This document shows positions 13,797 through 39,116 of a DNA stretch of 64,000 nt, piece by piece. Position numbers and translations under genes: made by a program. Below the pieces are notes generated by a model that made no database searches, had not been told where the DNA came from, and saw only the letters and a program-made list of their open reading frames with translations. Numbering within the stretch: position 1 is the stretch's first letter; each line of letters starts with the position of its first letter. Source of the DNA: a virus. Where the stretch lies: the IMG/VR virus record IMGVR_UViG_2643221642_000002, positions 1 through 64,000 of that record; one strand, 5' to 3'.

Positions 13797-14108
13797 CTAG
13801 TTGAGGGTTGCTGACCGCACGGTGTAGGACCCGTTGGAGGAGGTGCACGACGCTTCGCCAGAAAAGCGGCTCCGGATCGGTACGCCGTAAGAGTTTTGAG
13901 CATCGACCTGGCCGATGATCAGGTACTCGTGCACGCCGGTTGTGATCGTTGTGACTTCGATAAATTTAGCTGTGCTCGGCGCTTTCAGTTGGCCGCGGAT
14001 CGCGTCCTTGACCGCCTTTTCAGCGCCGATCGGCATGCATGCCAGGTCCGAGCAACCCGTCAGCATTGTCGCTCCCGCCAGTGCTGCGGCTAGAAAAACG
14101 GCGCGCAT
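13797..14108 (-). CDS. Small lipoprotein co-transcribed with the CI repressor
   Basis: 103 aa from the ATG 14106-14108 (TGATG coupling with cI); signal peptide MRAVFLAAALAGATMLTGC with lipobox LTGC. Confidence 0.6.
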   Translation of the reverse strand: MRAVFLAAALAGATMLTGCSDLACMPIGAEKAVKDAIRGQLKAPSTAKFIEVTTITTGVHEYLIIGQVDAQNSYGVPIRSRFSGEASCTSSNGSYTVRSATLN

Positions 14109-14770
14109 CAGGCGGCCGTATGGTCGAGGCGAATGATCTTCTCCGCCTGGTGTGGGGGCGCGATCCAAGCGATGTGTGCAACCCAGACTAGGCGCTGATC
14201 TTCGAGCGTCGGCGCCTGCAGCGATTGCAGGTCGTAGACGTCCTTGTTGCTGCCCTTCATCAGTCGCTTGAACACGATCTCGCCGCTCTCAAGCTGGCAG
14301 AATACCAGGCGATGAAGCATGTCCTTCGTCGGCTCAGGCAGGCGCTCGTCGTAGTAGATCAGCGATCCGTCATCGACGACGCTTCTATAGGCGTGGCCTT
14401 CGACCTTCAAGATCACGACGTCCTCGCTGGCCCCCGGCGGGATAGGGGCATACTCCCTGGCCTGGCCGGAGGTGAAAGCGACCGAGTCGTCCGGCATGGC
14501 GCCCAGCTTGCCGACGATGCGGCCCATGCGCTCGCTCGGCCCGAACATCAAAAACTCAGGCGTCGTGCGGAACTTCTTTGCGAAGACCTCGGCCTTCTTT
14601 CTAGAGAACGGACTCGTGCCGTTCTCATGCTGGATATAGGTGTTGCGGCTTAGCCCTAGGGCCTCGGCGGCGTCGGTCGCCGTCTCGTAACCGGCGCCCT
14701 CGCGGGAGGCCTTGAGCCTCGCTCCGGCCTCTCGGTTCTTCTGACGGGTTTTGGCGTCGGTCGTGGACAT
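14108..14770 (-). CDS. cI: CI-like repressor (XRE HTH + LexA-like S24 peptidase domain)
   Basis: N-terminal HTH (…ATDAAEALGLSRNTYIQHENGTS…) and C-terminal S24 autopeptidase region (…VVILKVEGHAYRSVVDDGSLIYYD…KRLMKG…). Divergent from cro with three operators in between. Confidence 0.85.
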   Translation of the reverse strand: MSTTDAKTRQKNREAGARLKASREGAGYETATDAAEALGLSRNTYIQHENGTSPFSRKKAEVFAKKFRTTPEFLMFGPSERMGRIVGKLGAMPDDSVAFTSGQAREYAPIPPGASEDVVILKVEGHAYRSVVDDGSLIYYDERLPEPTKDMLHRLVFCQLESGEIVFKRLMKGSNKDVYDLQSLQAPTLEDQRLVWVAHIAWIAPPHQAEKIIRLDHTAA

Positions 14771-16773: not shown

Positions 16774-17415
16774 ATGGCCAACCGGAATCCGTTGCAGGTG
16801 TTCTACGACAAGGTCGTCGAACTCTTCGCTGAACGCGACGAGATCAATCAGCGGATCGCTGAGACGAAAGCCGCCGCTGCCAAGCGCGGGTTCTCGAAGA
16901 AGGTGCTCAACAACGTGCTGCGACGCGCGAAGTTGACGCCCGAACAGCGCGAGGAAGAAGACGCGCTGACCCAGATCTACGAAGGCGCCCTGGGAATGTT
17001 GGGCGGAACGCCTCTCGGCGAGGCCGCTCTGCGCCGACTTTCCGAGGAGCGCAAGCGCCGGCCGGAAGGCGGTGACGATGAAGACTCCGAGCTGCCGTTC
17101 AGCGACGACGACGAACAGGAGCCGCCCGGCGGCGCCAGCGGTGACGTCGTTGCGGACGATCCCGTCGTCGAGGACAGCCAGGATGAGGCCCGAGCGAAGG
17201 GCGCGGCCGCCGCTCAGTCCGGTCAGCCGGTCCTGGCCAACCCCTACAAGCCGCGCACCAAGCAGCGCGGGTGGTGGGACGAGGCGTGGTGCCAGGCCAG
17301 CGGCTCGGACGGCATGGACATCCCCGAGGCCTGGCGTCCGACGCCGAAGCCGAAGAAGGGCGGGCCGAAGCCCGAGGGCGAAGGTGGCGAGGGCTCGGAA
17401 GGCGGTGACGCGTGA
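16774..17415 (+). CDS. GapR-like (DUF2312) DNA-binding protein fused to an acidic linker and a C-terminal RMF-like motif
   Basis: N-terminus: LQVFYDKVVELFAERDEINQRIAETKAAAAKRGFSKKVLNNVLRRAKLTPEQREEEDALTQIYEGALGM aligns to the GapR/DUF2312 core (…IKEVYAEAKGNGFDVKAMRTIIKLRK…EEEAVLETYMAALGM). C-terminus: NPYKPRTKQRGWWDEAWCQA resembles the ribosome modulation factor signature (CPYQTLNQRSQWLGGWREA). Confidence 0.7.
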   Translation: MANRNPLQVFYDKVVELFAERDEINQRIAETKAAAAKRGFSKKVLNNVLRRAKLTPEQREEEDALTQIYEGALGMLGGTPLGEAALRRLSEERKRRPEGGDDEDSELPFSDDDEQEPPGGASGDVVADDPVVEDSQDEARAKGAAAAQSGQPVLANPYKPRTKQRGWWDEAWCQASGSDGMDIPEAWRPTPKPKKGGPKPEGEGGEGSEGGDA

Positions 17416-18353
17416 GCCGCGAAAACCGCACCATGAAGCCGACGCCGTTGAGCGACCTGCTGAAGCCCCCGTCGCTGGACGCCAAGCTTGAAGCGCTGAA
17501 GCAGTACGGCGACCTGCGGATGCCCGACGAAAGCGAGCCACCGATCCTGAACCCGCCGGTCCGCGAAGCCCTGCACCAGTTGATGCTGGAGCTTTCGACC
17601 CCGCCCGAAGAACTGGCGTTGGTTGGAGTGAAGGCACGCCTGCGCGGGATCTTCGACGGCCCGCCGGGCACCGGTAAGACGACGTTGATGCACCACATCG
17701 CCGCCCGCTTGGGTCTGCCGATGCTGGTCGTTGAGGCGGCCAATGTGGCGTCGAAATACGTCAACCAGTCGGCCGAACAGGTCGCGAAACTCTTCGCCTT
17801 GGCCCGTGAAGTCGACGTCGTGCTGTTCCTGGATGAGCTGGACGCCCTGGCGACCAATCGGTCCGACAACAGCGGCTCGGTCGGCCAAGAGGGCAACAAG
17901 GTCGTCATCGCCCTGCTGCAAATGCTGGACCGGCACGACGGGATGGTGTTCGCCGCGACCAATCGGCGCGATATCATCGACCCGGCCATTTGGCGGCGCT
18001 TCCAGGTCCAGATGACCGTGGACCTGCCTGAGCCCGAGCAGCGCTTCGCGATCGTGAAGCGCTACAGCAAGCCGCTCGACATCGACGACGAGACGATCGG
18101 CCGGATCTCGGCGGTGCTCGAGGGCGCGTCACCCGCGCTGATCAAGAACGTCATGGAGAGCGTCCGCCGCGACCAGATCATCGGTCCGAAGCTGAAGCAG
18201 GACATGTCGATCGTCGCGGTGTTTCGCCGGATTGCCGCCTCGTCGGCGCCGGCGGACGAGGGCGACCAGCCCCCGCTCTGGGCCCGGCCAGAGTCCGCTC
18301 TGGCTTATCTGGCCGACGCGCCCTGGCCGCCCGCTCTGCCGAAGGCCGCCTGA
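17412..18353 (+). CDS. AAA+ ATPase
   Basis: Walker A GPPGTGKTT, Walker B VVLFLDELDA, sensor-1 AATNR; GTGA overlap with the upstream stop. Confidence 0.75.
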   Translation: MSRENRTMKPTPLSDLLKPPSLDAKLEALKQYGDLRMPDESEPPILNPPVREALHQLMLELSTPPEELALVGVKARLRGIFDGPPGTGKTTLMHHIAARLGLPMLVVEAANVASKYVNQSAEQVAKLFALAREVDVVLFLDELDALATNRSDNSGSVGQEGNKVVIALLQMLDRHDGMVFAATNRRDIIDPAIWRRFQVQMTVDLPEPEQRFAIVKRYSKPLDIDDETIGRISAVLEGASPALIKNVMESVRRDQIIGPKLKQDMSIVAVFRRIAASSAPADEGDQPPLWARPESALAYLADAPWPPALPKAA

Positions 18354-19793: not shown

Positions 19794-20005
19794 TCGGATC
19801 GACAGCAGAGCAAGCCGGCTACATCGCCGCCGCCGCCGTAGACAAGGCGTCTCAGAAGTTCGGGGTCGAGGTGGCGAAATCGCTCGCGATCGCGTTCTTG
19901 TGCGCCTGGGCGGTCGCATTGAAGCGCCTGCTCGGCCCGAAAGCCGCGAGCGAGATTGTCTACCAGGTCGCCGACCAGGTGGCGGCGCCGGAGGAAGACG
20001 TTTGA
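19790..20005 (+). CDS. Hypothetical small protein (GTG start)
   Basis: 71 aa; GTGA overlap upstream and TTGA overlap downstream. Confidence 0.35.
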   Translation: MIGSTAEQAGYIAAAAVDKASQKFGVEVAKSLAIAFLCAWAVALKRLLGPKAASEIVYQVADQVAAPEEDV

Positions 20006-21117
20006 CCGTCTCCATCCTCGTCGGCGACTGCCTGGCCCAGCTGCGCGCCCTACCCAGCAACAGCGTTCACACCTGCATCTGCAGCCCGCCGTATTTCCGG
20101 CTGCGCGACTACGACGTCAAAGGCCAGATCGGGCTGGAGAGGACGCCGGCCGCCTACATCAAGAAGCTGGTCGCGGTGTTCCGCGAAGTCCGCCGGGTCC
20201 TGCGCAAGGACGGCACGCTGTGGGTCAACATCGGCGACAGCTACGTCTCGGTCGGCGGAACAGCGGGCCGCCAAACCGGACAGAAGTTCGCCGATCGGCG
20301 TCGCGGCAAGGAAGACATCTGCAAGGGGGCGCGGATCAAGACTGCATCGCGGAAAGGCGCGGGGTTGAAGCCCAAGGATTTGATCGGCATCCCGTGGATG
20401 CTGGCTTTCGCACTGCGTGAGGATGGATGGTTCCTGCGCCAAGACATCATCTGGAACAAGCCGAACCCCATGCCCGAGAGCGTGGAGGATCGCTGCACCA
20501 AGTCGCACGAGTACATTTTCCTGCTGAGCAAGTCTCGCCGGTACTACTTCGACGCGGGTGCGATCGCTGAACCGATCACGACCGATCCGAAGGAGCGCTA
20601 CGAACAGCGCGCGAGGGTGACCGGTCGGGGAGAACAGGCAGCCGCGGCAGCCCGGGGTCAGGATCGGGACAAGTCAGGTGGCTTTCCGCCAAGGCGCCGC
20701 TCAGGAAACCTGGCAAGGAAACCCGGTGCCGCACGTGGTTGTCCGGACGGAACTGGGGCCAATGTCTGCGGCTCTATTCCTTGGGAGGGGTCTGAGCGGA
20801 ACAAGCGTTCGGTGTGGACCGTGGCTTCAAAGCCTCTGAAGGTCGCGCACTTCGCGGCCTATCCGCCTGAGTTGATCACCCCATGCGTGTTGGCGGGAAG
20901 TCCACGGGGGGGGGTAGTACTCGACCCGTTCGGCGGGGCCGGCACGACAGCGCTGGTCGCCGAACGGCTGGGGCGCGACTCCATCCTGATCGAACTCAAT
21001 CCCGACTACGCGGCCATGGCCCAGCGTCGTCTGAAGAACGAGCTGGCGATGGTGTCTGGGGCGGACGACCGGCGCGGCCTCGAGCCGCTGCCGTTGTTCG
21101 ACGGGGCTGCCGCATGA
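20002..21117 (+). CDS. Beta-class DNA methyltransferase (N6-adenine or N4-cytosine; SPPY motif)
   Basis: N-terminal motif IV …VHTCICSPPYF…; C-terminal motif I VLDPFGGAGTTALVA. This is the beta-class (CcrM/HinfI-type) motif order. S-P-P-Y is the variant usually seen in N4-cytosine enzymes. TTG start with a GGAGGA SD. Confidence 0.75.
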   Translation: MTVSILVGDCLAQLRALPSNSVHTCICSPPYFRLRDYDVKGQIGLERTPAAYIKKLVAVFREVRRVLRKDGTLWVNIGDSYVSVGGTAGRQTGQKFADRRRGKEDICKGARIKTASRKGAGLKPKDLIGIPWMLAFALREDGWFLRQDIIWNKPNPMPESVEDRCTKSHEYIFLLSKSRRYYFDAGAIAEPITTDPKERYEQRARVTGRGEQAAAAARGQDRDKSGGFPPRRRSGNLARKPGAARGCPDGTGANVCGSIPWEGSERNKRSVWTVASKPLKVAHFAAYPPELITPCVLAGSPRGGVVLDPFGGAGTTALVAERLGRDSILIELNPDYAAMAQRRLKNELAMVSGADDRRGLEPLPLFDGAAA

Positions 21118-21635
21118 CGGTCCAGCCCTTCCTGATCGGCGAAGGCTGGATGGAGATGAAAGATGGCGACGCATCGTGCCGCGCCATCTTCGACCGCCAC
21201 TACAGCCGCTACGTCTATGCAGACGGCCGCCGACCGAAGCTGATCGTTGGCCCTGGCGAGAAGCTGGTTCTGATGACCGCCGACGGTGGGGCTCTGTGTG
21301 CCTGGCGCAAGTTCATCAACGACGCCGGTCAGGAAGGGGTGAATTGCGCCATCTTCCGGCGAGAGGGCGGCGACGTCGCCTCCGCGATGCTGACCTCGGC
21401 GATGGACCTGGCCTGGGATCGCTGGCCGGGCGAGCGGTTCTACACCTATGTCGATCCACGCGGCGTCGCGCCTACGATCAGAGCCTCGCGCCCGACATGG
21501 GGCCACTGCTTCTACCAGGCAGGCTGGCGGTTTGCCGGCTTGACCAAAAAGCGCCTGCACATCCTGGAAGTCCCCACGGCCGAAACTCGCGCTGCCGAGG
21601 CCGCTGCAGAAAAAGCGCAGCGGGAGGCCGCATGA
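21114..21635 (+). CDS. Hypothetical protein co-transcribed with the methyltransferase
   Basis: 173-aa ORF; ATGA overlaps on both sides. Confidence 0.5.
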   Translation: MTVQPFLIGEGWMEMKDGDASCRAIFDRHYSRYVYADGRRPKLIVGPGEKLVLMTADGGALCAWRKFINDAGQEGVNCAIFRREGGDVASAMLTSAMDLAWDRWPGERFYTYVDPRGVAPTIRASRPTWGHCFYQAGWRFAGLTKKRLHILEVPTAETRAAEAAAEKAQREAA

Positions 21636-23236
21636 GCCGCTTCGACGACCACTTTATCGACGAGCTGAAGGCCCGGCTGCGGCCCTCGGACGTGATCGGC
21701 AAGACGGTGAAGCTGCGCCGCGCCGGGCGCGAGTATTCCGGTCTGTCGCCCTTCACCAAGGAGAAGAGCCCGTCGTTCTTCGTCAACGACGAGAAGGGCT
21801 TCTACCACTGCTTCTCCAGCGGCAAGCACGGCGACATCATCGAGTTTCTGGTCGAGACCGAGCGCCTGTCGTTCCCGGAGGCGGTCGAGCGCCTGGCCGC
21901 CGAGGCGGGCATGGCCTTGCCGGCGGCCGACCCGCAAGCGGCCGAGATGGACCGGCGCCGCGCGAGCCTGACCGACTGGCTGGATCTGGCCACCACCTGG
22001 TTCGAGGCGCAGTTGCGCCGGCCGGTGGGGCAGGGCGCCCGAGCCTATCTCGAGGGGCGCGGCCTGCCCGAGAGCGAGTGGTCGCGCTTCAAGATCGGCT
22101 ATGCCCCGGAAGGCCGCACGGCCCTGAAGGACTATCTGGTCGCCAAGGGCGCTCGCCCGGGCGAGCTGGTCGCCGCGGGGATCCTGGTCGACGAGGAGAA
22201 CGGCACGGCGCCGTTCGACCGCTTCCGCGACCGGATCATCTTCCCGATCACCGATGCGCGCGGGAAGATCATCTCGTTCGGCGGCCGGGCCCTGAACCCG
22301 TCGGCGAAGGCCAAGTACCTGAACGGGCCGGAGACGGTGCTGTTCGACAAGGGTCGCACGCTCTACGGCCTGTTCGAGGCCCGGCGGATTCAACACGCCG
22401 GCGGCGTCGACGCCGACCTAGCGGTGGTCGAGGGCTATATGGATGTGATCGCCTGCCAGCGGGCGGGGATCGCGGCCGTCGCGCCGATGGGCACGGCGCT
22501 GACCGAGGGCCAGATGCTGGCGCTGTGGCGCTTCCATCACGAGCCGACCCTGTGCTTCGACGGCGACGCCGCCGGCCAGCGCGCCGCCTGGCGCGCGATC
22601 GAACGGGCGCTGCCGCTCCTGGAGCCGCGGCGGACGTTCAAGTTCACCCTGCCCGTGGGCGGCAAGGACCCCGACGATGTGCTGCGCGAGCAGGGCGTGG
22701 CCGCGCTTGTCGCCCAACTTCGCCAGACGCGGCCGCTGGTCGAGCTGCTGTTCGAACACGAGCGCGCCGTCGACGCCTTGGCGACGCCGGAGCAGCGCGC
22801 CGGCCTGCGCGGGCGCCTTCGCCTCGCCGCGCGGACCATCCAGCACGCGGACCTCTCCAGCGCCTACATGCGCGACCTGATGGGCCGCTATGACGCCCAG
22901 TTCCAGGATCTGCGCCGGGGCCAAGGCCCGCGCGGGCGTTGGGCGGCGCCGAAGGCCGGCGCCACGCCCGAGCTGAAGGTCGCCGCGTCCACCCTGGCGA
23001 GCGGTCGGCCGACCATCGACACGATCCTGGCCAAGTCCGAGGTCTCGCCGGCGGAGTCGGCGCTGTTCGACCTGCTGACCGAGCAGGAAGACGTCGATCG
23101 CCGCATCGCTGACGCCCGCGCGCGCCTGGCCGAGCCCGGCGCGCTGGACGAGCTGGTGGCGCTGAAGGCCGAGCGCGGGCGCGTGGCCGAGGCCGTGAAG
23201 GCCGCGAGATTTCAAGATCAGGGAGCAGCCGCATGA
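21632..23236 (+). CDS. dnaG: DNA primase DnaG-like
   Basis: N-terminal CHC2-type zinc-finger region (…SPFTKEKSPSFFVNDEKGFYHCFSSGKHGDIIEF…) followed by a TOPRIM core (…VVEGYMDVIA…FDGDAAGQRAA…). The zinc-finger ligands look partly substituted. Confidence 0.8.
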   Translation: MSRFDDHFIDELKARLRPSDVIGKTVKLRRAGREYSGLSPFTKEKSPSFFVNDEKGFYHCFSSGKHGDIIEFLVETERLSFPEAVERLAAEAGMALPAADPQAAEMDRRRASLTDWLDLATTWFEAQLRRPVGQGARAYLEGRGLPESEWSRFKIGYAPEGRTALKDYLVAKGARPGELVAAGILVDEENGTAPFDRFRDRIIFPITDARGKIISFGGRALNPSAKAKYLNGPETVLFDKGRTLYGLFEARRIQHAGGVDADLAVVEGYMDVIACQRAGIAAVAPMGTALTEGQMLALWRFHHEPTLCFDGDAAGQRAAWRAIERALPLLEPRRTFKFTLPVGGKDPDDVLREQGVAALVAQLRQTRPLVELLFEHERAVDALATPEQRAGLRGRLRLAARTIQHADLSSAYMRDLMGRYDAQFQDLRRGQGPRGRWAAPKAGATPELKVAASTLASGRPTIDTILAKSEVSPAESALFDLLTEQEDVDRRIADARARLAEPGALDELVALKAERGRVAEAVKAARFQDQGAAA

Positions 23237-23901
23237 TCTTCTCGGATGCGGAAGAACGCGTGCGCGCCGCGACGGTAGCCATGCTGCGGGCCGAGTTCCC
23301 AGCCGCCAGGATCATTCACGAGCTGGAGATCGGCGGCGCCAGGCTGGATGTCGCCGCGATCGACCACGACCGGATCGTGGTCTGCGAGATCAAGTCCGAG
23401 AAGGACAGCCTGAAGCGGCTGGCGCATCAGTCAAAATTCGCGCTGTCGGTCAGCGACGACTACCGCGTGATCTGTACGTCGAAGCACGTCGACCAGATCC
23501 TGGGCTTCCGCGAAATCTACGTGACGGTCGATGGGCGCCAAGTCGTCAACAAGAACTTCAATGAGCACTTGCGCGCTGCGACGGTCTGGCTTGAGAGCGG
23601 CGGCCAGCTCCAGAAGGTGAGCAAACCGCTGAAGTGGTACGGCCGCCGCCGCATCCTGGCCGAGTCCGTCCTGAGCCTGATGCACGTCCATGAGGTGAAG
23701 GCGGCGTTGCGGCATCTGGGCGCCAAGTCGCGCTGGACCGGCTCCGACCTTTGCACCTTCGCGATGGAGCACATGTCGGGTGGCGATATTCGGCGCCTGG
23801 TCTGCGCCAGCCTCCGCGCCCGCCGGTTCGCGCGCGCTGACGACCCCTTCACCATCGGAGAAGTGTCGATGAGTTTCAGTACTGCCGTCGTCCATGGCTG
23901 A
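23233..23901 (+). CDS. MmcB-like PD-(D/E)XK nuclease family protein
   Basis: …RIIHELEIGGARLDVAAIDHDRIVVCEIKSEKDS… matches the E…D…E-I-K core of MmcB/DUF1052. Confidence 0.55.
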   Translation: MIFSDAEERVRAATVAMLRAEFPAARIIHELEIGGARLDVAAIDHDRIVVCEIKSEKDSLKRLAHQSKFALSVSDDYRVICTSKHVDQILGFREIYVTVDGRQVVNKNFNEHLRAATVWLESGGQLQKVSKPLKWYGRRRILAESVLSLMHVHEVKAALRHLGAKSRWTGSDLCTFAMEHMSGGDIRRLVCASLRARRFARADDPFTIGEVSMSFSTAVVHG

Positions 23902-25348
23902 CGGCTCGCAATCCTTCCCCGCGGCGGTCCTGCCGCACAACGTCCAGACCGAGATGGCCCTGGTGGGCATGCTGCTGGCCGACAACCAGGCGGTCGAGCG
24001 GATCGACTGGCTGACGCCCGCAGCATTCCACGACCCGTTCCTGGAGCGCCTGTTCACCCGCGTGGTCACGACGATCCGCAAGGGTGAACTGGTCGAGCCC
24101 CGCCTGGCCCACGACTGGCTGGTCGGCGATCCCGCGTACGAGGAGCTGGGCGGCCTGGCCTATCTGGCCCAGCTGGTCGAGTTCGCCCCGCCGGCGTCGA
24201 TGGTGGTCAGCTATGCCCGTCAGTTGCGCACCCTGCTGCGCCGCCGGGAGATGATCCGGATCGGCAACGAGATGGTGCTGGCCGCTGGCCAGGCGATCGA
24301 CGAGGACGAGGTCGACGGGGAGCTGGAGCGGGCCCAGCAGGGGCTCTACAACCTCGCCGAACACGGCGACGTGCGCGGCGGCTACGTGGCCTTTGGCGAC
24401 GCTCTGCGCGGCGCTGTCGAGATGGTGGCCAAGGCCTACGGCAGCGCCGGCGGGGTGGTGGGCGTTTCGACCGGGCTGTCGGACATCGACCAGAAGCTGG
24501 GCGGCATGCACCCGTCCGACCTGATCGTCCTGGCCGGCCGCCCGTCGATGGGCAAGACGGCCCTGGCCACCAACATCGCGTTCAACGTCGCCAAGCGCTA
24601 CGCCTACGAGGTGCAGCCGGACGGCTCGCGCAAGACTATCCAGGGCGGCGTGGTCGCCTTCTACTCCCTGGAAATGAGCGCCGAGCAGCTGGCCCTGCGG
24701 ATGCTGGCCGACGCGTCCGGCGTTTCGGGTGATCGCCTCCGGAAGGGTGAGATCAACGCCAGCGAGTTCGGGCGGGTCCGCGACGCGGCCATGGAGATCC
24801 AGGAAGCGCCGCTCTACATCGACGCGACCGGCGGCCTTTCCATCGCGAAGCTGTGCGCCCGGGCGCGCCGGCTCAAGCGCCAGGTCGGCCTGGACCTCGT
24901 CGTGGTCGACTACCTGCAGCTGGTCACGGGAACGGACCTGGGCCCCAACAGCAATCGGGTGCAGGAAGTCAGCCAGATCACCATGGCCTTGAAGGCGCTG
25001 GCCAAGGAACTTGGCTGCCCGGTGATCGCGCTTTCGCAACTGTCGCGGATGGTCGAGCAGCGCGCCGACAAGCGGCCGATGCTGTCGGACCTGCGGGAGT
25101 CGGGGTCGATCGAGCAGGACGCCGACATCGTCGCGTTCGTCTACCGCGAGGCCTACTACGCCGAACGCACCGAGCCGCGCGAGGGCACCCCTGAACACCT
25201 CGAGTGGCAGCGGCTGATGGAGGAGGTGATCGGCCTTGCCGAGGTGATCATCGCCAAGCAACGGCACGGTCCGATCGGCACCGTCAAGCTGGCCTTCGAC
25301 GCCGACACGACGAAGTTCTCAGACATTCAGAACAGACGCCACCAGTAG
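23894..25348 (+). CDS. dnaB: Replicative DNA helicase DnaB
   Basis: Walker A GRPSMGKTA, Walker B LDLVVVDYLQL, and a RecA-like C-terminal domain (…LSQLSR…SDLRESGSIEQDADIV…). Confidence 0.9.
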   Translation: MADGSQSFPAAVLPHNVQTEMALVGMLLADNQAVERIDWLTPAAFHDPFLERLFTRVVTTIRKGELVEPRLAHDWLVGDPAYEELGGLAYLAQLVEFAPPASMVVSYARQLRTLLRRREMIRIGNEMVLAAGQAIDEDEVDGELERAQQGLYNLAEHGDVRGGYVAFGDALRGAVEMVAKAYGSAGGVVGVSTGLSDIDQKLGGMHPSDLIVLAGRPSMGKTALATNIAFNVAKRYAYEVQPDGSRKTIQGGVVAFYSLEMSAEQLALRMLADASGVSGDRLRKGEINASEFGRVRDAAMEIQEAPLYIDATGGLSIAKLCARARRLKRQVGLDLVVVDYLQLVTGTDLGPNSNRVQEVSQITMALKALAKELGCPVIALSQLSRMVEQRADKRPMLSDLRESGSIEQDADIVAFVYREAYYAERTEPREGTPEHLEWQRLMEEVIGLAEVIIAKQRHGPIGTVKLAFDADTTKFSDIQNRRHQ

Positions 25349-25358
25349 CGGGATCACG

Positions 25359-26549
25359 ATGACGCACGCCCAATTGCCCGACCCGCTTACCTCGACCGAC
25401 TGCGATCTGCGCGGCCTGCCGTACATGCCGTTTGAGGTGCAGAACATCCTGATCTCCGACCTGGTCCTGCTCTCGACCGGAGACGAGTTCAAGGCCGCCA
25501 TGCTGCTGCGCGCGGCCTCGTGGAGCCGGATCCCGGCCGCATCCCTTCCGGACGAGCCGCGCGCCTTGGCCAAGCTGGCCGGCGTCGACTTCTGCGATTG
25601 GGAGAAGGTCAAGGATCGCGCCCTTCATGGCTGGGTCAAATGCTCGGACGGGTTCCTCTACCACCCGGACGTCGCGGATCGGGCGATGAACGCCCTGCCG
25701 GATCATCAGGTCTTCCAGGAAAAGCGGTCGGGCGACGCGGCCCGCAAACGGCGCGAGCGCGACGATCGCCGGCGCCTGTTCGAAGAAGCTTCGGGTCTGA
25801 ACCTGTCGGTCGCCTTCAACACCAAGACGAGCGACCTGCGCCGGTTGGTGGCGGACGCCATGGTCACGCGTGACCAGCGTGACAAGTCACGCGTGACAAG
25901 TCACGGCGAACAACGTGACCAAGACCGTGACCGTCCCCATGACATGTCACGATCTGAAGCTGTGACGGGTCACGAAAAAGTCACGGCTAGAAAGGGAAAG
26001 GGAAAAGAAGATTCCCCCCAACCCCCCACGGGGGGCGATCGTGACAGGTTCGACGAGGCATGGTCGGTCTTGCACGACAAATCCCGTGGTCCGGCGGACA
26101 TGGGCATGGCGCGGACCTTGTGGCGGGAGTTCATCGCTAGCGGCGAGATCGACGCCGACGGGCTGTTCGCGGCGACGAAAGCGGTCTCCGACGTCGTCTT
26201 CGCCTCGGGCGGTAAGCAGCCGATGAAGGCCTTCCACCGTTGGCTCAAGCTGCGCGAATGGCAGAACTGGGCGCCGACGGGCGGGCAGCCGAAGAGCCAC
26301 TGGACGGGGCCGGATCACATCCGTGACGCGATCATCGCCCAGGTCGCCAAGACCCGCTGCAGCCGCAAGGAAGGCGAGGCCTTCGCCGCCAGCTGGCTCG
26401 ACAGCGTGACGACGTGGAGCGACGTGCCTGCGGCGATCGTCTGCCTGGCCACAACGGTCGAGAAGAAGCTGCGGACCACGGTCGGCAAGATGCTGGTCGA
26501 CGAGTTCGGCGTGCAGGTGATCGTCAAGGCCGCCGGGGAGGCCGCCTGA
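25359..26549 (+). CDS. DUF1376-domain replication initiation protein (lambda-O-like role)
   Basis: N-terminal DUF1376 signature (LPYMPFEVQNILISDLVLLSTGDEFKAAMLLRAASWSR…). The central low-complexity linker is encoded by iteron-like DNA. Confidence 0.65.
   Translation: MTHAQLPDPLTSTDCDLRGLPYMPFEVQNILISDLVLLSTGDEFKAAMLLRAASWSRIPAASLPDEPRALAKLAGVDFCDWEKVKDRALHGWVKCSDGFLYHPDVADRAMNALPDHQVFQEKRSGDAARKRRERDDRRRLFEEASGLNLSVAFNTKTSDLRRLVADAMVTRDQRDKSRVTSHGEQRDQDRDRPHDMSRSEAVTGHEKVTARKGKGKEDSPQPPTGGDRDRFDEAWSVLHDKSRGPADMGMARTLWREFIASGEIDADGLFAATKAVSDVVFASGGKQPMKAFHRWLKLREWQNWAPTGGQPKSHWTGPDHIRDAIIAQVAKTRCSRKEGEAFAASWLDSVTTWSDVPAAIVCLATTVEKKLRTTVGKMLVDEFGVQVIVKAAGEAA
25862..26050. repeat. Iteron-like palindromic repeats + A-rich/C-rich tract (candidate origin of replication)
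   Basis: GGTCACGCGTGACC (25862-25875); tandem GCGTGACAAGTCAC ×2 (25877-25904); further GTGAC/GTCAC half-sites to ~25990; then aaagggaaagggaaaagaag and ccccccaaccccccacgggggg. Confidence 0.55.
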
Positions 26550-26734
26550 TGGGTTGGTTCGAGTTGATCATCGGCCTCCACGTCATCGTGCTTGCTGTTG
26601 GCGCTGCGTTTTTGGCGCGTCGAATGCGGCGAGCGAAGCGTCTTGATCGTGCCCTTTTCGAGATTCGGCGCGACGAGATGAAGCGTCGGAACGCTGAGCT
26701 GTTCGCGCGCTACGACCGGAAGGTGGGCCGCTGA
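26549..26734 (+). CDS. Small membrane protein
   Basis: 61 aa with an N-terminal TM segment (WFELIIGLHVIVLAVGAAFLA); TGATG coupling. Confidence 0.45.
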   Translation: MGWFELIIGLHVIVLAVGAAFLARRMRRAKRLDRALFEIRRDEMKRRNAELFARYDRKVGR

Positions 26735-26991
26735 TGGCCACGATCACATGGAGCGTCGAGGACTTCCGGACCGGCAAGCGCTGGGACGGCGCTGCCGAGA
26801 ACGTCATCACGGCCAAGTACGAAGCGCAGATGGCCATAGACGCCACTGGCCGGAAGGCTCTGGCCGGCATCAAGGCGACGGTCGTTCGGTCGCCCAGAAC
26901 TGGGGCGCCGACCCTGTGGCACGCCCGGTCGATCGCGCAGCGGTTCGGCCCCGACAAGCTGACATGGGATGAGGTAAAGGCCGATGCGTGA
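26734..26991 (+). CDS. Hypothetical protein
   Basis: 85-aa ORF; coupled to its neighbours. Confidence 0.45.
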   Translation: MATITWSVEDFRTGKRWDGAAENVITAKYEAQMAIDATGRKALAGIKATVVRSPRTGAPTLWHARSIAQRFGPDKLTWDEVKADA

Positions 26992-27298
26992 ACCGACGAT
27001 CACCTGCGGGGTCCTGGACTGCCGGATCACCGGCCGGCCGACCTTCGGGCGCAAGGCCTTCTTCTGCACCAAGCACGTCGGCCTGGCCTGCGATGACAGG
27101 TCCCTGAACGAGTACACCGGCCTGGCCGGAGAGCGGCGGCGCCTCGAGGCCCGCTGTACGGCCAAGCCGCACCTGGGCGCGGCCTCGTCCAGCCGGGGTC
27201 TCGGCCGCGCGACCTTCCTGGAGACCAACAGCTGGTCCCGCCTGGTCGACCAGATCAAGGCGAAGTTCGAATTGAAGCCGGGCGTGGAGTTGGGGTGA
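26984..27298 (+). CDS. Cys-rich zinc-finger-like protein (candidate transcription factor)
   Basis: C-x4-C…C-x2-H arrangement (ITCGVLDCRITGRPTFGRKAFFCTKH) in a ~100-aa protein. Confidence 0.5.
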   Translation: MREPTITCGVLDCRITGRPTFGRKAFFCTKHVGLACDDRSLNEYTGLAGERRRLEARCTAKPHLGAASSSRGLGRATFLETNSWSRLVDQIKAKFELKPGVELG

Positions 27299-28206
27299 TG
27301 GCGAAGTCGGGGGCGAGACGAGGCATTTTCAAGCCGGGCTTTGACGGGCCAAGGGACGAGACCCTGGGCCTGCCGGGCCGCGGCCAATCCGTGCCGGACG
27401 AGGGGGCGATCGACGCGCTGGAGGCGCGACTCCACCGGGCCATGCTGACCCTGACCACGCTGAGCGGCGACGGGCCGTCGGCGGTGCGCAGCGGCTGGCC
27501 GGACCATGTGATCGAACTGGCCGACCGGATCGAACGCGAGAAGGACGGCGACAAGCCGAAGCGGAAGTTCCGGCCCACCGGCGCCGACGTCGACGACCTG
27601 CTCGGCGCCCTGGCGCTGTTGGAGGGGCTGCGGACCGAGATCTACCAGCTGGTGCGCTACAAGGCGCTCGACGACTTCTACCTCGAGGACGGCGCGTCCT
27701 GGACCGACCTGGGCGACCAGTTCGGGCGCAGCGACAACTGGGCCCGCGAAACCTATCGCCGGGCCATGCTGCAGGCCGCCAAGCGGACCGGGATCGTGTT
27801 CTCGGCGCCGGAGGGTTACGCGGTCGTGGCGATCTGCACGATGGTCGAGGGCACGCTGTTCACGCACCTGTCGATCAGCGCCGACCCGCGCCAGGCCCTC
27901 TACGACATGAAGGCCCGGAACCCGACCGACATCGTCGACAGCTTCGCCGTCTGGACCAACGATCGGGCCACGGCGAAGGTCGTGCTGGACCAGGTGAAGG
28001 CCCACCACCTGGCGCAGCGCAAGCATGGCGGCTGGCACTACCTGAACCCGTTCGACGCCGAGTTCACGATCCTGGAGAAGGCCGAGGCCCTGGGGGCGTC
28101 GGTCCGCCAGCAGTACTTGGCCGGCGAGCCGCTGGAGGCGCCGGTGCGCCAGGTGGTCGTCGATCCCGTCGAAGAGATGCTGATCGCCATGGAGGTCGAG
28201 GCATGA
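27298..28206 (+). CDS. Putative DNA-binding protein (sigma-70 region-4-like HTH) with a C-terminal T5orf172/GIY-YIG-like segment
   Basis: Central segment LRTEIYQLVRYKALDDFYLEDGASWTDLGDQFGRSDNWARETYRRAMLQAAKR resembles a region-4 HTH. The C-terminal half (GYAVVAICTMVEG…HHLAQRKHGGWHYLN) is T5orf172-like. Confidence 0.4.
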   Translation: MAKSGARRGIFKPGFDGPRDETLGLPGRGQSVPDEGAIDALEARLHRAMLTLTTLSGDGPSAVRSGWPDHVIELADRIEREKDGDKPKRKFRPTGADVDDLLGALALLEGLRTEIYQLVRYKALDDFYLEDGASWTDLGDQFGRSDNWARETYRRAMLQAAKRTGIVFSAPEGYAVVAICTMVEGTLFTHLSISADPRQALYDMKARNPTDIVDSFAVWTNDRATAKVVLDQVKAHHLAQRKHGGWHYLNPFDAEFTILEKAEALGASVRQQYLAGEPLEAPVRQVVVDPVEEMLIAMEVEA

Positions 28207-28874
28207 CGGCGCGCGGGGTCACGGTGGCGGAGTTCGCGGACCGCTGTCGCGTCGTGCACCCCTCCCAGCAGCTGGGCAAGACCGAGTTGGCCCGCTGGGA
28301 GGCGCGGGCCGCGCCTTGGGCGCGGGACATCCTGGCGACGGTAATGGCTCCCGATGTCACGCACCTTCGGACCAAGCGTCTCGGGGACGGCGACGATCGC
28401 CGAGGATGGTACCAACGGGCCTTCGGAGAGCCGTTCAGCGACGAGGACATCACCATCGTCAAGCCGTCCTGCTGTGGCTTGACCGAGATCATGATGAGCC
28501 GAGCGCTGGAGGCCTACGACAGGCTCAACAGGTTCAGGGCGGCCAAGCACTGGTGGCGCATTGACGATCACGCGCTCGACGCCGGCCCGATGGTGATCGG
28601 CGTCGACTGGGCTGCCGACCGTGTCGAGTGGGACGTCGCGGACTGGGGAAGCGACAGCTGGCGGACATGCAATCCCGCGCCGACGATCGACCTGACACCG
28701 CCAGCCCGCATGACGAGGCGAGACCTTCTCGCCACTTCGGCGAACGTCGATATCAACAAAGTCAAATCTGTTAGATCGACAAAACCCGTGAATCAGGTGA
28801 TTCGGTCACTAGTGGTGCAGAAACGCGCGCCGCTCCCAAACATCGTCCGGAAGCGAGGCCATGGCCCCGCGTAA
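28203..28874 (+). CDS. Hypothetical protein
   Basis: 223-aa ORF with GGAGG SD and ATGA coupling. Its last ~45 codons run through an atypically AT-rich stretch and overlap terS by 14 nt. Confidence 0.45.
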   Translation: MTARGVTVAEFADRCRVVHPSQQLGKTELARWEARAAPWARDILATVMAPDVTHLRTKRLGDGDDRRGWYQRAFGEPFSDEDITIVKPSCCGLTEIMMSRALEAYDRLNRFRAAKHWWRIDDHALDAGPMVIGVDWAADRVEWDVADWGSDSWRTCNPAPTIDLTPPARMTRRDLLATSANVDINKVKSVRSTKPVNQVIRSLVVQKRAPLPNIVRKRGHGPA

Positions 28875-29658
28875 GACGACGAAGTCTTCTCGTAAATCCA
28901 GGGCCACACCGCTTCGGCGCGCCGACGACGTCACGTGGGTGACGGCCGCCGAGTACGCGCGCCGCGTCGGCATCACCAAGCCTCGGATGAGCGAATTCTT
29001 CAACAAGGGCATGCCGTTCGAGAACGGCAAGGATCCCGAGGGGCGCCGCGACTCCAAACTGGTGAACATCCACGAGGCTGATGCCTGGCGGATGGCCAAC
29101 ACCGAGGTGCGGGTTGCATCTGACGGAAGTCTACGCGGGCTGAACATGGCGGGAGGCGCGGAGCCGCCCGCCGGTTTGTCCCACGCTGGGAACGATCGGG
29201 GCGAGGGCGTCACTCCGGTCGATCCCAAGGCGGCGGTTCCCGACCCTCCCCCGGGGCCGCCGCCAACCCCATCGACATCGGCCCCGCCCGCGGCTTCCAC
29301 GCCGCCGGACTTGAGCCCCCAGCAGTTGGCCATGGCGCGGATCGCCGAGGCCAAGGCCGCGGGGGTCGAGGCGGACACCCGATGGAAGCAACAGCGCCTG
29401 GCCGCCGCCCAAGGCCTTCTGGTCGACCGCGAGGCCGCCGTCGGCGCCCATCGTGCCTTTGTCCAGAAGGTCGGCTCGTCGATCGACCGCATGCCCGCCA
29501 ACTTCGCCGGCGTCGTCGCCGCACGCCTGGGGGTCGCGGAGCACGAGGTGTTCCTGGCCCTGGATGAAATCGTCGCCGTGCAGATGAGAGAAGACCTTGC
29601 CAGCGACGCCCGCAGCCACGCCGCCGCCGCTGCCCAGCGGCGAGGGGGAAAACGATAA
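28861..29658 (+). CDS. terS: Terminase small subunit
   Basis: N-terminal HTH (VTAAEYARRVGITKPRMSEFFNKGMP) and position immediately upstream of the large terminase. Confidence 0.65.
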   Translation: MAPRKTTKSSRKSRATPLRRADDVTWVTAAEYARRVGITKPRMSEFFNKGMPFENGKDPEGRRDSKLVNIHEADAWRMANTEVRVASDGSLRGLNMAGGAEPPAGLSHAGNDRGEGVTPVDPKAAVPDPPPGPPPTPSTSAPPAASTPPDLSPQQLAMARIAEAKAAGVEADTRWKQQRLAAAQGLLVDREAAVGAHRAFVQKVGSSIDRMPANFAGVVAARLGVAEHEVFLALDEIVAVQMREDLASDARSHAAAAAQRRGGKR

Positions 29659-31576
29659 CTGGCCCGAGCTGCTGGGCGCGGCCGCTCTGCTCGACGCCGA
29701 AGCTGACGAGATCTCGCCCAAGGAGCGGCTGACGCCGCTGAAGTTCGGCGAAGAGCACCGGACGTACACCAAGGAAGGCAAGGACTCGCGCTGGCGGTCC
29801 AGAGCCACCCCCTGGGCCCGCGAGATCCTGGAGACCCTGGATCAGAAGAGCCCGTTTCAGCGGGTGGTGGCGCCCAAGGGCACCCAGCTCGGGTTCACGG
29901 AACTTGGCCTGATCTGGGCCGGGCAGGGGGTCACGCAGGGCCAGTCCCTGTTGATGATCCTGCCCAGCGAGGCGGTCGCCAAGCGGATCGTCAAGACCAA
30001 GTTCAAGCCGATGCTCAAGACCACGTCGGTCTTGAAGCAGTGCTTCCCCGGCCGGTCGATCGACACCGCCGGGCTGCACTTCAGCAACGACAACGTCGAC
30101 CTGATGTTCGGGGGCTCCAACAGCCCCAACAACTTCGCCTCGCTGACCGTCCAGCGCTTCATGGGCGACGAGGTCGATCGCTGGTCGCCGGAGCTGCTGA
30201 AGGAAGGCGACCCGGTCGACCTGGCCGCCAACCGCATCGCCGAGTACGGCGTGCTGGGGAAGATGTTCCTGCCGTCGTCGCCGACGGTCGAGGGCGCGTC
30301 GATCGTCTGGCGCGAATGGCTGCAGTCTGACCAGCGGGTGTTCGAGTGCCCCTGCCCAGGGTGCGGGACCAAGCAGCAGTGGCTGTGGGAAAACATCAAG
30401 TGGGACAACGGCGAGCCTGACACCGTCAAGCTCCAATGCGTGGCCTGCGAGGAGCAGTTCACGGAAGGATCCTGGAAAGGGATCTGGAACGACGGGGTCT
30501 GGCGGGCGACCGAACTGAACCCGATCCGAAAGGACACGGCGGGCTTCCACCTGTCGACCCTGTACGCCCGCCTCGGACAGCGCACCTGGGCCCAGCTGGT
30601 GCAGACCTGGGAGGCGGTGGTCGCCTCCGGCCTGTCGTCGCGGATGCAGGTGTTCCAGAACACCATCCTGGGCCTGCCCTGGAAGATCAGCGAAGACGCC
30701 ATGCAGGCGAGCGAGCTGCGCCAGCGGCTGGACGACACCATGGAGAAGGGCGTCGTCCCGGCCGGCGGACTGCTGCTGACGGCGGGTGTCGACTACCAGA
30801 AGAACCGGATCGAAGTGTTCGTCTGGGCTTGGGCCCGGGATCGCGAGCGCTGGCTGGTCGACAAGGTGGTCGTCGAGCGCCTGGACGCGGATCGCAAGCT
30901 GCGGCCGGCGAAGGACATCGCCGCCGACTTGGACGCGATGGCGCTCGACAAGGACTGGCGTCACGAGCTGGGCGGATGCCTGCGGGTCGAGATGGCCTTG
31001 CATGACGCCGGCGACCGGCCCTCGGATGTCTATGACGTCCTCGAGCACCTGGCCAAGTCCCGCAACGTCGGCTCCAAGGGGGCCGAGGGCTGGGGCAAGA
31101 TCGTCCACTTCTCGGCGCCGAAGGTCATCGACGTGACCCGCGACGGTAAGGTCGTGATGGCCGGCCGCCGGCAGATGTGGGTTTACACCGCCGAGGCGAA
31201 GCGGGCCTGGTACGACGACCTGCGTCGCGGCCCGTCCGCCGAAGGCCCCTCCGAGCGTTTCGTGCACCTGCCGTCGTGGATCGACGAGGAGAAAGACCTC
31301 CTGGAGGGCTTCGTCTCCGAGGAGCTGCGCAAGAGCAGCCGCGGCAAGCTGAAGTGGGAAAAGCTGATCGAGCGAAACGAGCCGCTGGACTGCGCGATTC
31401 TGGCGGAGGGCGCGCGCTGGCAGCTGAAGTCGCACCGCTGGAAGGAAGACGACTGGAGGCGTCGCGAGGCGCGGGTCACCAGCGAGGCCGAACCGCCCAA
31501 GGAACAACCCAGTCCGCCCCCAACCCCACAGGGTGGCGATGGCGACTGGATCAAATCACAGAAGGACTGGCTTTGA
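29597..31576 (+). CDS. terL: Terminase large subunit, lambda GpA family
   Basis: GpA-family organisation, including the conserved Cys cluster (ECPCPGCGTKQQW…KLQCVACEEQF). The only in-frame start is the TTG at 29597, which overlaps terS by 62 nt. Confidence 0.85.
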   Translation: MPATPAATPPPLPSGEGENDNWPELLGAAALLDAEADEISPKERLTPLKFGEEHRTYTKEGKDSRWRSRATPWAREILETLDQKSPFQRVVAPKGTQLGFTELGLIWAGQGVTQGQSLLMILPSEAVAKRIVKTKFKPMLKTTSVLKQCFPGRSIDTAGLHFSNDNVDLMFGGSNSPNNFASLTVQRFMGDEVDRWSPELLKEGDPVDLAANRIAEYGVLGKMFLPSSPTVEGASIVWREWLQSDQRVFECPCPGCGTKQQWLWENIKWDNGEPDTVKLQCVACEEQFTEGSWKGIWNDGVWRATELNPIRKDTAGFHLSTLYARLGQRTWAQLVQTWEAVVASGLSSRMQVFQNTILGLPWKISEDAMQASELRQRLDDTMEKGVVPAGGLLLTAGVDYQKNRIEVFVWAWARDRERWLVDKVVVERLDADRKLRPAKDIAADLDAMALDKDWRHELGGCLRVEMALHDAGDRPSDVYDVLEHLAKSRNVGSKGAEGWGKIVHFSAPKVIDVTRDGKVVMAGRRQMWVYTAEAKRAWYDDLRRGPSAEGPSERFVHLPSWIDEEKDLLEGFVSEELRKSSRGKLKWEKLIERNEPLDCAILAEGARWQLKSHRWKEDDWRRREARVTSEAEPPKEQPSPPPTPQGGDGDWIKSQKDWL

Positions 31577-38871: not shown

Positions 38872-39116
38872 AGCATGCGCCGCTGACGGCGGAGGGCCTG
38901 CTGGCGGTGGATATCGCCAATCGCCCCGGCATGTGGATCCGGGCCGGCCAGATCGCCTTGATCACCGGCCTGGACTGGGCCGCGATCATGGCCGTGATCC
39001 CGGACACGGCCGATCGCGAAAAGGTCGAGCACCTGGTCAAGGCCTATGAGCGGGGCCTGGTGTCCGGTTCGTCCAAGCTGGCCGCCAAGGCGGCGTCCAA
39101 GGCGCCGAAGGAATAG
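38832..39116 (+). other. Programmed -1 ribosomal frameshift site (G GGG GGC at 38832-38838) and the -1 frame extension giving a G-T-like fusion
   Basis: The heptamer is in X XXY YYZ phase of the 38293 frame. The -1 frame continues …RNHAGNLCPRLKHAPLTAEGLLAVDIANRPGMWIRAGQIALITGLDWAAIMAVIPDTADREKVEHLVKAYERGLVSGSSKLAAKAASKAPKE to the TAG at 39114-39116. This matches the conserved G/GT arrangement just upstream of the tape measure gene. Confidence 0.6.

Follow-up and report, generated by a model that had tools for sequence, protein, structure and literature searches.

Does the replication initiator gene of this Caulobacter prophage contain, within its own coding sequence, the origin from which the phage replicates? 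The precedent is phage lambda, whose origin (oriLambda) lies inside gene O and combines initiator-binding repeats with an adjacent meltable tract (PMC3349717). A sequence-only reading of the 64-kb window (i.e., the whole stretch of 64,000 nucleotides of viral DNA analyzed here) had proposed a lambda-like origin at the place where the initiator gene codes for its linker. All available computational tests agree with this proposal, from which we infer initiator binding and origin activity. The palindrome array and the tracts that follow it are probably an iteron-type vegetative replication origin of the prophage, located inside its own initiator gene.

The gene (positions 25359 to 26549, plus strand) encodes a DUF1376-family replication initiator of 396 amino acids. 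The protein matches Pfam PF07120 (DUF1376) at residues 21 to 106 (34.4 bits, against a cutoff of 30.1) and PHROG 22470, "replication protein" (E value, 1.9e-42); a Pfam search at an E value of ≤0.1 returned nothing besides DUF1376. A protein with the same sequence is on record under Caulobacter sp. Root343, and a protein search yielded 174 homologues, nearly all of which have a precomputed PF07120 match. Its N-terminal domain is of a DNA-binding type and is followed by a long helix, a disordered linker (residues 179 to 227), and a C-terminal domain. In the AlphaFold2 model (mean pLDDT, 86), the linker residues score <50 and lie between two confident domains. Directly upstream is an open reading frame for a phage DnaB-type replicative helicase (23894 to 25348, plus strand), assigned from the equivalent gene at homologous loci, which matches Pfam DnaB/DnaB_C. 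A gene for a phage DnaG-type primase (21626 to 23236, plus strand) matches PHROG 6444, "DNA primase" (E value, 1e-148), and the primase, DnaB, and initiator genes form one rightward operon. Searches of the 64-kb window for tRNAs and Rfam families gave no matches.

Three adjacent elements (i.e., an iteron array, a purine tract, and a C/G-run element) span approximately codons 168 to 229 of the initiator gene. The array (25862 to 25984) contains 12 perfect GTGAC/GTCAC half-sites and one degenerate half-site, arranged as six partly overlapping 12-bp palindromes with additional single half-sites. The palindromes are GTCACGCGTGAC (25863 to 25874 and 25886 to 25897), GTGACAAGTCAC (25879 to 25890 and 25893 to 25904), ATGACATGTCAC (25939 to 25950; one arm degenerate), and GTGACGGGTCAC (25962 to 25973), and the single perfect half-sites are at 25915, 25927, and 25980. 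The sequence-only reading had described GGTCACGCGTGACC in the initiator gene and two perfect tandem copies of GCGTGACAAGTCAC, and we found these at 25862 to 25875 and at 25877 to 25890 and 25891 to 25904, respectively. Its further count of four more half-site pairs was too high: the tandem copies are followed by two palindromic pairs (ATGACATGTCAC and GTGACGGGTCAC), the three single half-sites, and one half-site past the C/G-run element (26041). It had also placed the array in a linker-coding region, which is borne out by the predicted disorder of residues 179 to 227; the repeat-encoded segment is mostly disordered interdomain linker in the AlphaFold2 prediction.

This density of half-sites is exceptional in the window. 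The 130 bp from 25851 to 25980 contain 12 perfect GTSAC pentamers, compared with 0.26 expected from the window-wide density, and the runner-up among all 130-bp stretches of the 64 kb contains 2. The earlier reading had proposed a comparison with shuffled controls, and the observed count lies above all of them: 5,000 dinucleotide shuffles of positions 25851 to 25990 gave a mean of 1.8 GTSAC sites and a maximum of 7. When all 5-mers were considered together with their reverse complements, GTSAC formed the top cluster of the whole window (12 copies, versus 7 for the next unrelated word).

The last half-site of the array and the GGCTA that follows it make up the junction GTCACGGCTA (25980 to 25989, plus strand), which joins the iterons to the purine tract. 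All columns of GTCACGGCTA are invariant in an eight-sequence DNA alignment, and ACGGCTA is also found in phi297 and Burkholderia vB_E177. The purine tract GGCTAGAAAGGGAAAGGGAAAAGAAGATT (25985 to 26013, plus strand) consists of GGGA repeats with a 6-nt period and is a candidate DNA-unwinding or single-strand capture element. It includes an unbroken purine run from 25989 to 26011, in line with the A/G-rich tract reported earlier downstream of the repeats, and its region is the only tract of at least 22 purines or pyrimidines in 24 positions in the 64 kb. No other 31-bp duplex in the gene is as unstable as the tract (-38.8 versus a mean of -48.8 ± 3.1 kcal/mol), which also ranks among the seven least stable duplexes in the window. 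With a GC content of 40% in a genome of 67% GC, it is AT rich in relative but not in absolute terms, and its conserved feature is the GGGA hexamer period rather than its AT content. It is encoded with the rare codons GGA, AGA, and AAA.

The C/G-run element (C6-AA-C6-AC-G6; 26014 to 26035) is unique in the window. The C-rich tract of the earlier reading corresponds to CCCCCCAACCCCCC at 26014 to 26027, followed by AC and GGGGGG (26030 to 26035), and its pair of C-runs is the only instance in the 64 kb of two neighboring runs of five or more C residues. The element is invariant in eight homologues, yet it is read in two frames, as SPQPP or PPNPP, and counterparts in ydaU of the Rac prophage and in Synechococcus phage Ssp-JY42 are in further reading frames. 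A role as a hairpin, i-motif, or G-quadruplex was considered and rejected; as single-stranded DNA, the element folds no better than shuffled sequences (z scores, -0.7 to +0.3). Abutting the C-run is a GATTC (26010 to 26014), the sole GANTC site between 25700 and 26200, which is present at the same position in six of eight close homologues; GANTC is the motif methylated by Caulobacter CcrM. On the 3' side of the C/G-run element, a flanking GTGAC half-site (26041 to 26045) has a GTGAC or GTCAC counterpart in most of the alignment (six of eight sequences, i.e., the window and five of seven homologues), and some distant relatives have a full palindrome after the C-runs.

Relatives were gathered by protein search and exact-sequence look-ups. 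Single-protein pattern scans of genome and viral contigs returned no close relatives, and a pattern scan of IMG/VR gave at least 519 confirmed DUF1376 relatives. We surveyed 147 nonredundant DUF1376 loci of roughly 3.4 kb each, in which the linker makes up 15% of the sequence. The densest 5-mer cluster of the locus falls within the linker in 107 of the 147 (binomial P = 7e-55). The motifs are lineage specific (e.g., GTCAC, GTCCCnnGGGAC, ATGCCacGGCAT, TTCCGcCGGAA, TCTACatGTAGA, and GGGAT/ATCCC), they occur in both orientations in 86 of 88 strong clusters, and a repeated palindromic unit is present in 43% of linkers, compared with 4% of control windows. The strongest purine tract of the locus is likewise within the linker in 116 loci, on the coding strand in 115 of these, and the repeat cluster precedes its start by a median of 11 nt. 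Family members differ in the frame in which they translate the GGGA hexamer repeat; all three are used, and the peptides are KGKG, TGTG, RERE, or GQGQ. The full C-run/C-run/G-run element is present in 18 of the 147 loci, and an inverted repeat follows the purine tract in a minority (22%). Loci sharing the layout of array and tract include E. coli Rac ydaU, Pseudomonas phi297, Burkholderia phages, and a Synechococcus phage.

Repeats that keep their place while their sequence varies with lineage are the classic pattern of an initiator and its iterons. Covariation of the N-terminal domain and the repeat motif is clear only among close relatives: their concordance falls from 0.70 at ≥80% identity to about 0.15 below 65%. 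A mutual-information scan of N-terminal domain columns against motif class gave no clean recognition surface; its peaks, around residue 56 and residues 71 to 80, are not relied on because they are confounded by phylogeny. Literature searches on DUF1376, ydaU, and oriJ, which did not take in the oriJ plasmid paper of Potrykus et al. (2000), found no origin described inside these genes.

The repeats and the purine- and C-rich tracts could in principle be by-products of a charged or proline-rich linker peptide (RD, VT, KGKG, and PPxPP) and have no function as DNA, given that VTRD, VTSH, and PxPPxGG are recurrent peptides in the aligned proteins and that purine-rich codons naturally encode charged linkers. 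However, the half-sites occur in both orientations and in all three reading frames, and synonymous resampling of the linker peptide yields only a third of the observed count (4.2 ± 0.7 sites versus 12, and never more than 8 in 20,000 trials). The use of rare codons is systematic: CGT accounts for five of the eight Arg codons in the linker, compared with 6% elsewhere, and rare TCA, AGT, ACA, GGA, AGA, and AAA codons are also used in the array and tract region. The array is kept at the same place in seven homologues with 45 to 73% identity. Among eight homologues, synonymous-codon identity is 0.75 to 0.9 in residues 167 to 228 (approximate limits), compared with 0.4 to 0.6 elsewhere, whereas amino acid identity in the same residues is just 0.4 to 0.55, so that conservation is stronger at synonymous sites than in the protein sequence. 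CCCCCCAACCCCCC (C6AAC6) is preserved in two reading frames among the homologues, and across the family the same DNA hexamer or C-run gives different peptides in different frames. Because of these frames, orientations, rare codons, and conserved synonymous sites, the array is selected as DNA and not as peptide. All three elements are conserved as DNA against the coding constraint, and a peptide by-product is extremely unlikely, a reading that we regard as effectively refuted. Together with the layout that recurs across the DUF1376 family, this DNA-level conservation indicates that the region is very probably a phage replication origin.

Other functions at the DNA level were weighed against an origin. 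The array might be a platform for another DNA-binding protein (e.g., an operator or other regulatory site, a centromere-like site, or a site of incompatibility or exclusion) and not a replication start: operators and partition sites, too, typically have short palindromes in clusters, the binding of the array by the DUF1376 protein is itself just inferred, and the iterons of lambda serve in replication silencing and exclusion as well (PMC3349717). Such a platform is nevertheless improbable, as the array is always within the DUF1376 gene whatever its neighbors, and a purine tract of low stability invariably goes with it; the helicase-type neighbor varies among the inspected loci (Rac has the DnaC-like YdaV, phi297 has DnaB, and this prophage has DnaG plus DnaB). 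Moreover, no promoter-like site is nearby (a sigma-70-like promoter scan of 25300 to 26700 found none), the prophage is integrated, and the region examined shows no genes for partition. If a C/G-run hairpin and the T-rich complement of the purine tract formed an intrinsic terminator of leftward (antisense) transcription, the palindromes would be unrelated or accessory. A scan flags three overlapping minus-strand sites (26035 to 25999) and a total of six terminator-like sites in 25300 to 26700, compared with 0.9 ± 1.2 in shuffles, and the lambda inverted repeat with its T-rich complement can be read likewise. The terminator is very unlikely all the same: the (GGGACA)n or (GGGAGA)n tracts of most family members have a T-poor complement, the full C-run/C-run/G-run element is confined to the 18 loci noted above, no source of antisense transcription is evident, and the iteron array would be left unexplained. 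The purine tract and C-runs could instead act chiefly as a recombination "linker" through which phages exchange initiator halves, the N-terminal one being origin specific and the C-terminal one helicase specific, with the repeats still serving as iterons. N-terminal domains can be aligned between lineages in which the C-terminal halves cannot, the tract and C/G element are nearly identical between the Caulobacter prophage and the Synechococcus phage despite 30% protein identity and different iterons, and the lambda record annotates recombination points 39157 and 39165 within this part of ori. A linker of this kind is compatible with origin function and does not exclude it; as the chief role of these tracts it is unlikely, since the 6-nt period, the bias toward one strand (115/116), and the weak duplex are signs of a mechanistic role.

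Two further candidates were rejected. For a DnaA-dependent origin, no TTATCCACA-like site (≤2 mismatches) was present within 23873 to 27868, and the count of such DnaA boxes over the whole window was at chance level (48 versus 46 expected). For a pac or cos site, 2.8 kb separate the region from the small terminase gene downstream, the DUF1376 gene of phi297 is in the early region beside the repressor with no terminase gene in the annotated stretch, and Rac ydaU is beside racR and ydaS/ydaT, again with no terminase gene in that stretch.

The proposed origin is close to oriLambda in design. In both, the elements are in the middle of the initiator gene, here in the interdomain segment; several repeats with internal dyad symmetry are present, the GTSAC palindromes being the putative initiator-binding sites here; and the order (per the lambda record) is repeats, a purine-rich coding-strand tract of low stability, and then an inverted repeat. 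Lineage-specific repeats in a constant layout are also a feature of oriLambda and other lambdoid phages. The components are different: the initiator is DUF1376 (PF07120) and not Phage_rep_O (PF04492), with no detectable sequence relation in an hhalign comparison of the DUF1376 profile with lambda O (probability, 0.04); lambda has four spaced 18-bp iterons, whereas the array here has partly overlapping 12-bp palindromes and single 5-bp half-sites; lambda has a 38-bp AT-rich block in place of the GGGA-periodic purine tract of 40% GC; and lambda uses a P-type loader for host DnaB, whereas this phage has its own DnaB and DnaG. The locus thus follows lambda's logic and is not a member of lambda's initiator family.

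Other systems show partial likenesses. The top Foldseek match of the initiator model in the PDB is a RepA_N N-terminal domain (4pta), a weak fold resemblance; a sequence search for PDB relatives found none, and the initiator has no RepA_N (PF06970) match in Pfam at an E value of ≤0.1. Many RepA_N origins are said to be within the rep coding sequence, a statement attributed to Weaver et al. in 2009. In RepA_N initiators (pSK41, pTZ2162, and PLE RepA), an N-terminal winged-helix domain binds semipalindromic iterons and the C-terminal domain is lineage specific (PMC7145576). The repABC plasmids of alphaproteobacteria also have the origin within the initiator coding sequence: oriV is inside repC, and replication is lost when an A+T-rich stretch is altered by silent mutations (PMC3155836). 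Unlike the locus described here, repC has no iterons (PMC3155836), belongs to another protein family, and is carried by plasmids and not phages. YdaU of the Rac prophage is itself a DUF1376 protein, and at the same relative place ydaU has TGTTCAAACA/TGTTTGAACA repeats, an A-rich tract, and then C7-TAAAT-C7-G5, with a different repeat sequence, an AT-rich context, and a DnaC-like YdaV partner instead of a phage DnaB. From the repeats to the C/G element, this part of ydaU covers MG1655 positions 1,421,471 to 1,421,654. An active origin, oriJ, has been reported for Rac in E. coli K-12 at the level of the prophage (PMC3945230).

In the proposed mechanism, dimers of the DUF1376 initiator would bind the GTGAC/GTCAC palindromes (25862 to 25984) through the N-terminal domain, and the resulting nucleoprotein complex would destabilize the adjoining purine-rich tract (25985 to 26013). 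The GGGA-periodic strand may then be held as single-stranded DNA, with the C/G-run element and the further half-site bounding the melted region. Early-operon transcription would run through the origin, as at oriLambda.

DUF1376, a Pfam "domain of unknown function" that is common in prophages, thus gains a candidate function and a testable DNA target, and coordinates follow for the predicted origins of many temperate phages, among them E. coli Rac, Pseudomonas phi297-like phages, and Burkholderia phages. The origin reading also accounts for the odd conserved peptides and rare codons in DUF1376 linkers, a point of use in annotation. The lineages provide a natural series of initiator and iteron specificities for the evolution of origin recognition under a simultaneous coding constraint, and the conserved GGGA-periodic element is a candidate for strand opening or helicase loading. 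More tentatively, DUF1376 may be a large unrecognized initiator family of Proteobacteria phages and prophages and of cyanophages, whose genes generally contain their own origin; this would include a (GGGANN)n element that has not been described before, has a 6-nt period, is specific to one strand, often precedes paired C-runs, and is conserved independently of iteron specificity and reading frame. If so, (GGGANN)n would be more than a mere AT-rich melting zone and could serve to capture single-stranded DNA or to load the helicase, like DnaA-trios or Rep-bound DUE repeats.

The DUF1376 gene (25359-26549, plus strand) encodes a 396-aa protein that matches Pfam DUF1376 at residues 21-106 (34.4 bits versus a cutoff of 30.1) and PHROG 22470, "replication protein" (E = 1.9e-42), and that is identical to a protein recorded from Caulobacter sp. 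Root343. It belongs to a rightward prophage operon. Beyond a divergent repressor gene (14108-14770, minus strand) lie, in order, genes for an AAA ATPase (17412-18353), a RusA-like resolvase, an N6/N4 DNA methyltransferase (19900-21117), a DnaG-type primase (21626-23236), a DnaB-type helicase (23894-25348), the DUF1376 initiator, a DUF6362 protein, and the small (28861-29658) and GpA-type large (29597-31576) terminases. The ~14-32 kb part of the window showed no DnaC/P-type helicase loader; in a relative, L006, a BCS1_N/AAA gene (L006 1766-3028) lies directly 3' of the initiator gene. An AlphaFold2 model of the initiator (118-sequence alignment; mean pLDDT, 86) confidently predicts an N-terminal helix/strand domain and a C-terminal domain (residues 230-396), and includes a long helix (103-146), another helix (157-174), and a disordered stretch (179-227) in which most of the putative origin-coding DNA falls.

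The sequence-only reading had proposed an oriLambda-like origin at 25862-26050 inside this gene, and its coordinates were correct on direct reading. The array begins with GGTCACGCGTGACC from 25862, followed by one A and, as had been described, two perfect tandem copies of GCGTGACAAGTCAC. At least four more pairs of GTGAC/GTCAC (GTSAC) half-sites had been claimed after these copies; the DNA contains two, ATGACATGTCAC (25939-25950) and GTGACGGGTCAC (25962-25973), plus single half-sites at 25915, 25927, and 25980. The A/G-rich and C-rich tracts reported downstream are both present: after the half-site at 25980 come GGCTA and 23 nt of unbroken purines (25989-26011), and the C/G element, CCCCCCAACCCCCC-AC-GGGGGG (26014-26035), is followed by one more GTGAC at 26041. 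A GTCAC-N4-GTGAC palindrome inside the small terminase gene (GTCACGTGGGTGAC, 28930-28943) may be a chance occurrence.

Twelve perfect GTSAC pentamers occupy 130 bp, versus 0.26 predicted from the window-wide density, and every other 130-bp stretch in the 64 kb holds at most two. Repeat density is also above that of shuffled controls (mean, 1.8; maximum, 7; 5,000 dinucleotide shuffles of 25851-25990), and GTSAC forms the densest cluster of any 5-mer (with its reverse complement) in the window. The only tract with at least 22 of 24 purines or pyrimidines adjoins the array, and the C-run pair has no second counterpart in the window; thus, three unique features adjoin one another. No other 31-bp duplex of the gene is as unstable as the purine tract (-38.8 kcal/mol versus a window mean of -48.8 ± 3.1), which is also one of the seven least stable across the 64 kb, and the 40-bp stretch at 25974 has 40% GC in a genome of 67% GC. 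The C/G element folded as a single strand no better than shuffles, and neither DnaA boxes nor promoter-like sites were found near the putative origin. The window's least stable duplex is in its lowest-GC 100 bp (28724-28823; GC, 0.47; 30-bp minimum of 0.30 at 28747), a candidate cos/pac site or late promoter at the end of an ORF (28203-28874), just 5' of the small terminase gene.

That the repeats are a coding by-product of the linker peptide (VTRD, RVTSH, RD, VT, and the like) is effectively refuted. The half-sites occupy both orientations and all three frames and are made up of codons that are rare in the phage: CGT encodes 5 of the linker's 8 Arg residues versus 6% of those elsewhere, and TCA, AGT, and ACA are further examples. 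The purine tract likewise uses the rare codons AGA, AAA, and GGA, the last of which encodes 6% of Gly residues elsewhere. When the same peptide was re-encoded according to the phage's own codon usage, 4.2 ± 0.7 sites were obtained, with none of the 20,000 draws exceeding 8, versus the 12 observed. In a codon alignment of the window gene with seven full-length homologues (45-73% identity), identical residues within ~167-228 share the identical codon in 75-90% of cases versus 40-60% elsewhere in the gene, amino acid identity in this stretch being only 0.4-0.55. Moreover, all eight genes keep CCCCCCAACCCCCC unchanged, encoding SPQPP in six and, shifted by one base, PPNPP in two. Together, these observations indicate that the constraint acts on nucleotides.

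Each of the seven homologues has 10-13 GTSAC half-sites at the equivalent place, and these lead 3' into an invariant GTCACGGCTA, a purine tract, C6AAC6, and a G-run. Beyond the gene itself, the density of the motif in these loci is only 0-1.8 per kb; the neighboring genes (DnaG, DnaB, DUF6362, and terminase) are the same. At 26010-26014, the C-run is adjoined by GANTC, the motif that Caulobacter CcrM methylates, and such a site abuts the C-run in six of eight close homologues (the window, L001, L004, L006, L007, and L009). The prophage also carries the N6/N4 DNA methyltransferase gene, and a tie between methylation state and use of the putative origin is conceivable.

The layout extends across the family. 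We surveyed 160 additional DUF1376 loci, drawn from genomes and IMG/VR and reduced to 147 nonredundant genes, taking as the linker stretch the region that starts 60 nt short of the N-domain end and runs to 450 nt past it (15% of the sequence). The densest 5-mer (with reverse complement) cluster of the ~3.4-kb locus sits in this stretch in 107 of the 147 (binomial P = 7e-55). The repeated word depends on lineage: GTCAC in many loci, and GTCCCnnGGGAC, ATGCCacGGCAT, TTCCGcCGGAA, TCTACatGTAGA, ATGGCggtGCCAT, GGGAT/ATCCC, or CGTCTaca in others. Among 88 strong clusters, it occurs in both orientations in 86 and in at least three orientation/frame combinations in 82, and 43% of linkers versus 4% of control windows contain a repeated palindromic unit. 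The strongest 24-nt purine/pyrimidine tract of the locus is within the linker in 116/147 genes (with the purines on the coding strand in 115) and begins a median of 11 nt past the repeat cluster. The tract is more than purine-rich: within it, GGGA recurs at 6-nt spacing (164/209 successive spacings) and is translated in all three frames, as KGKG, TGTG, RERE, GEGE, or GQGQ peptides. In 22% of genes, versus 4% of control windows, an inverted repeat of at least 7 bp comes within the next 50 nt; paired C-runs occur in 35/147 genes, 18 of them with a subsequent G-run.

Named examples include Burkholderia phages vB_E177 and Magia and Pseudomonas phage phi297, in which TGTGACAAGTCACG and TGTGACAGGTCACG precede ACGGCTAAGA(CAGGGA)5 and then AGTCCTACtgacGTAGGACT. 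Synechococcus phage Ssp-JY42 (L011 2989-3120), whose initiator is only 30% identical to that of Caulobacter, has three copies of a different iteron, GCAGTCCCGNCGGGA, and then a purine tract plus C7-AT-C6-TGCC-G6 that nearly match their Caulobacter counterparts but are read in another frame; its gene downstream of the initiator is annotated "DnaA, C-terminal." In ydaU of the Escherichia coli Rac prophage (L014 2472-2655; MG1655 1,421,471-1,421,654), TGTTCAAACA/TGTTTGAACA repeats lead to an A-rich tract and C7-TAAAT-C7-G5, using CCC proline codons, which are rare in E. coli. An active origin, oriJ, has been reported for Rac (PMC3945230), and this three-part layout is its likely location.

Origins within initiator genes are of a known kind: lambda O is the classical case, and many RepA_N plasmids are similarly organized. 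The origin of repABC likewise lies inside repC (PMC3155836). In the lambda record, gene O contains four annotated iterons (39034-39118; see also PMC3349717). Read directly, these are palindromes, ATCCCTCaaaacGAGGGA, followed on the coding strand by CACAAAAGACACTATTACAAAAGAAAAAAGAAAAGATTATTCG and the inverted repeat GTCAGAGAATTC...GAATCCTCTGAC. The element order is identical to that of the Caulobacter locus, which upholds the lambda-like layout first proposed. In contrast, lambda O belongs to the Phage_rep_O family and has no detectable relation to the DUF1376 profile (hhalign probability, 0.04).

The best explanation, which we consider probable, is that the initiator gene contains an iteron-type phage origin. 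The elements themselves, their conservation as DNA, and the recurrence of the layout across the family are established; in the proposed mechanism, the initiator would bind the palindromes, the adjacent purine tract would be melted open or captured, and the C-terminal domain would bring in the phage DnaB and DnaG for the origin to fire. The rivals are less likely or are compatible additions to this origin. The array might serve the binding of another protein. The C/G hairpin and T-rich tract of the minus strand score as terminator-like and might form an antisense terminator, but this fails in most relatives, in which the complementary tract is T-poor. Another reading is a recombination linker by which initiator halves are exchanged: the lambda record lists two recombination points (39157-39166; L175 558-567) inside the A-rich/inverted-repeat part of ori, which fits with the conserved stretch also being a crossover point between initiator halves. 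In the literature searched, a putative intragenic origin borne by the DUF1376 family as a whole appears to be undescribed, as does its frame-independent, GGGA-periodic purine element, accompanied in a subset by paired C-runs.
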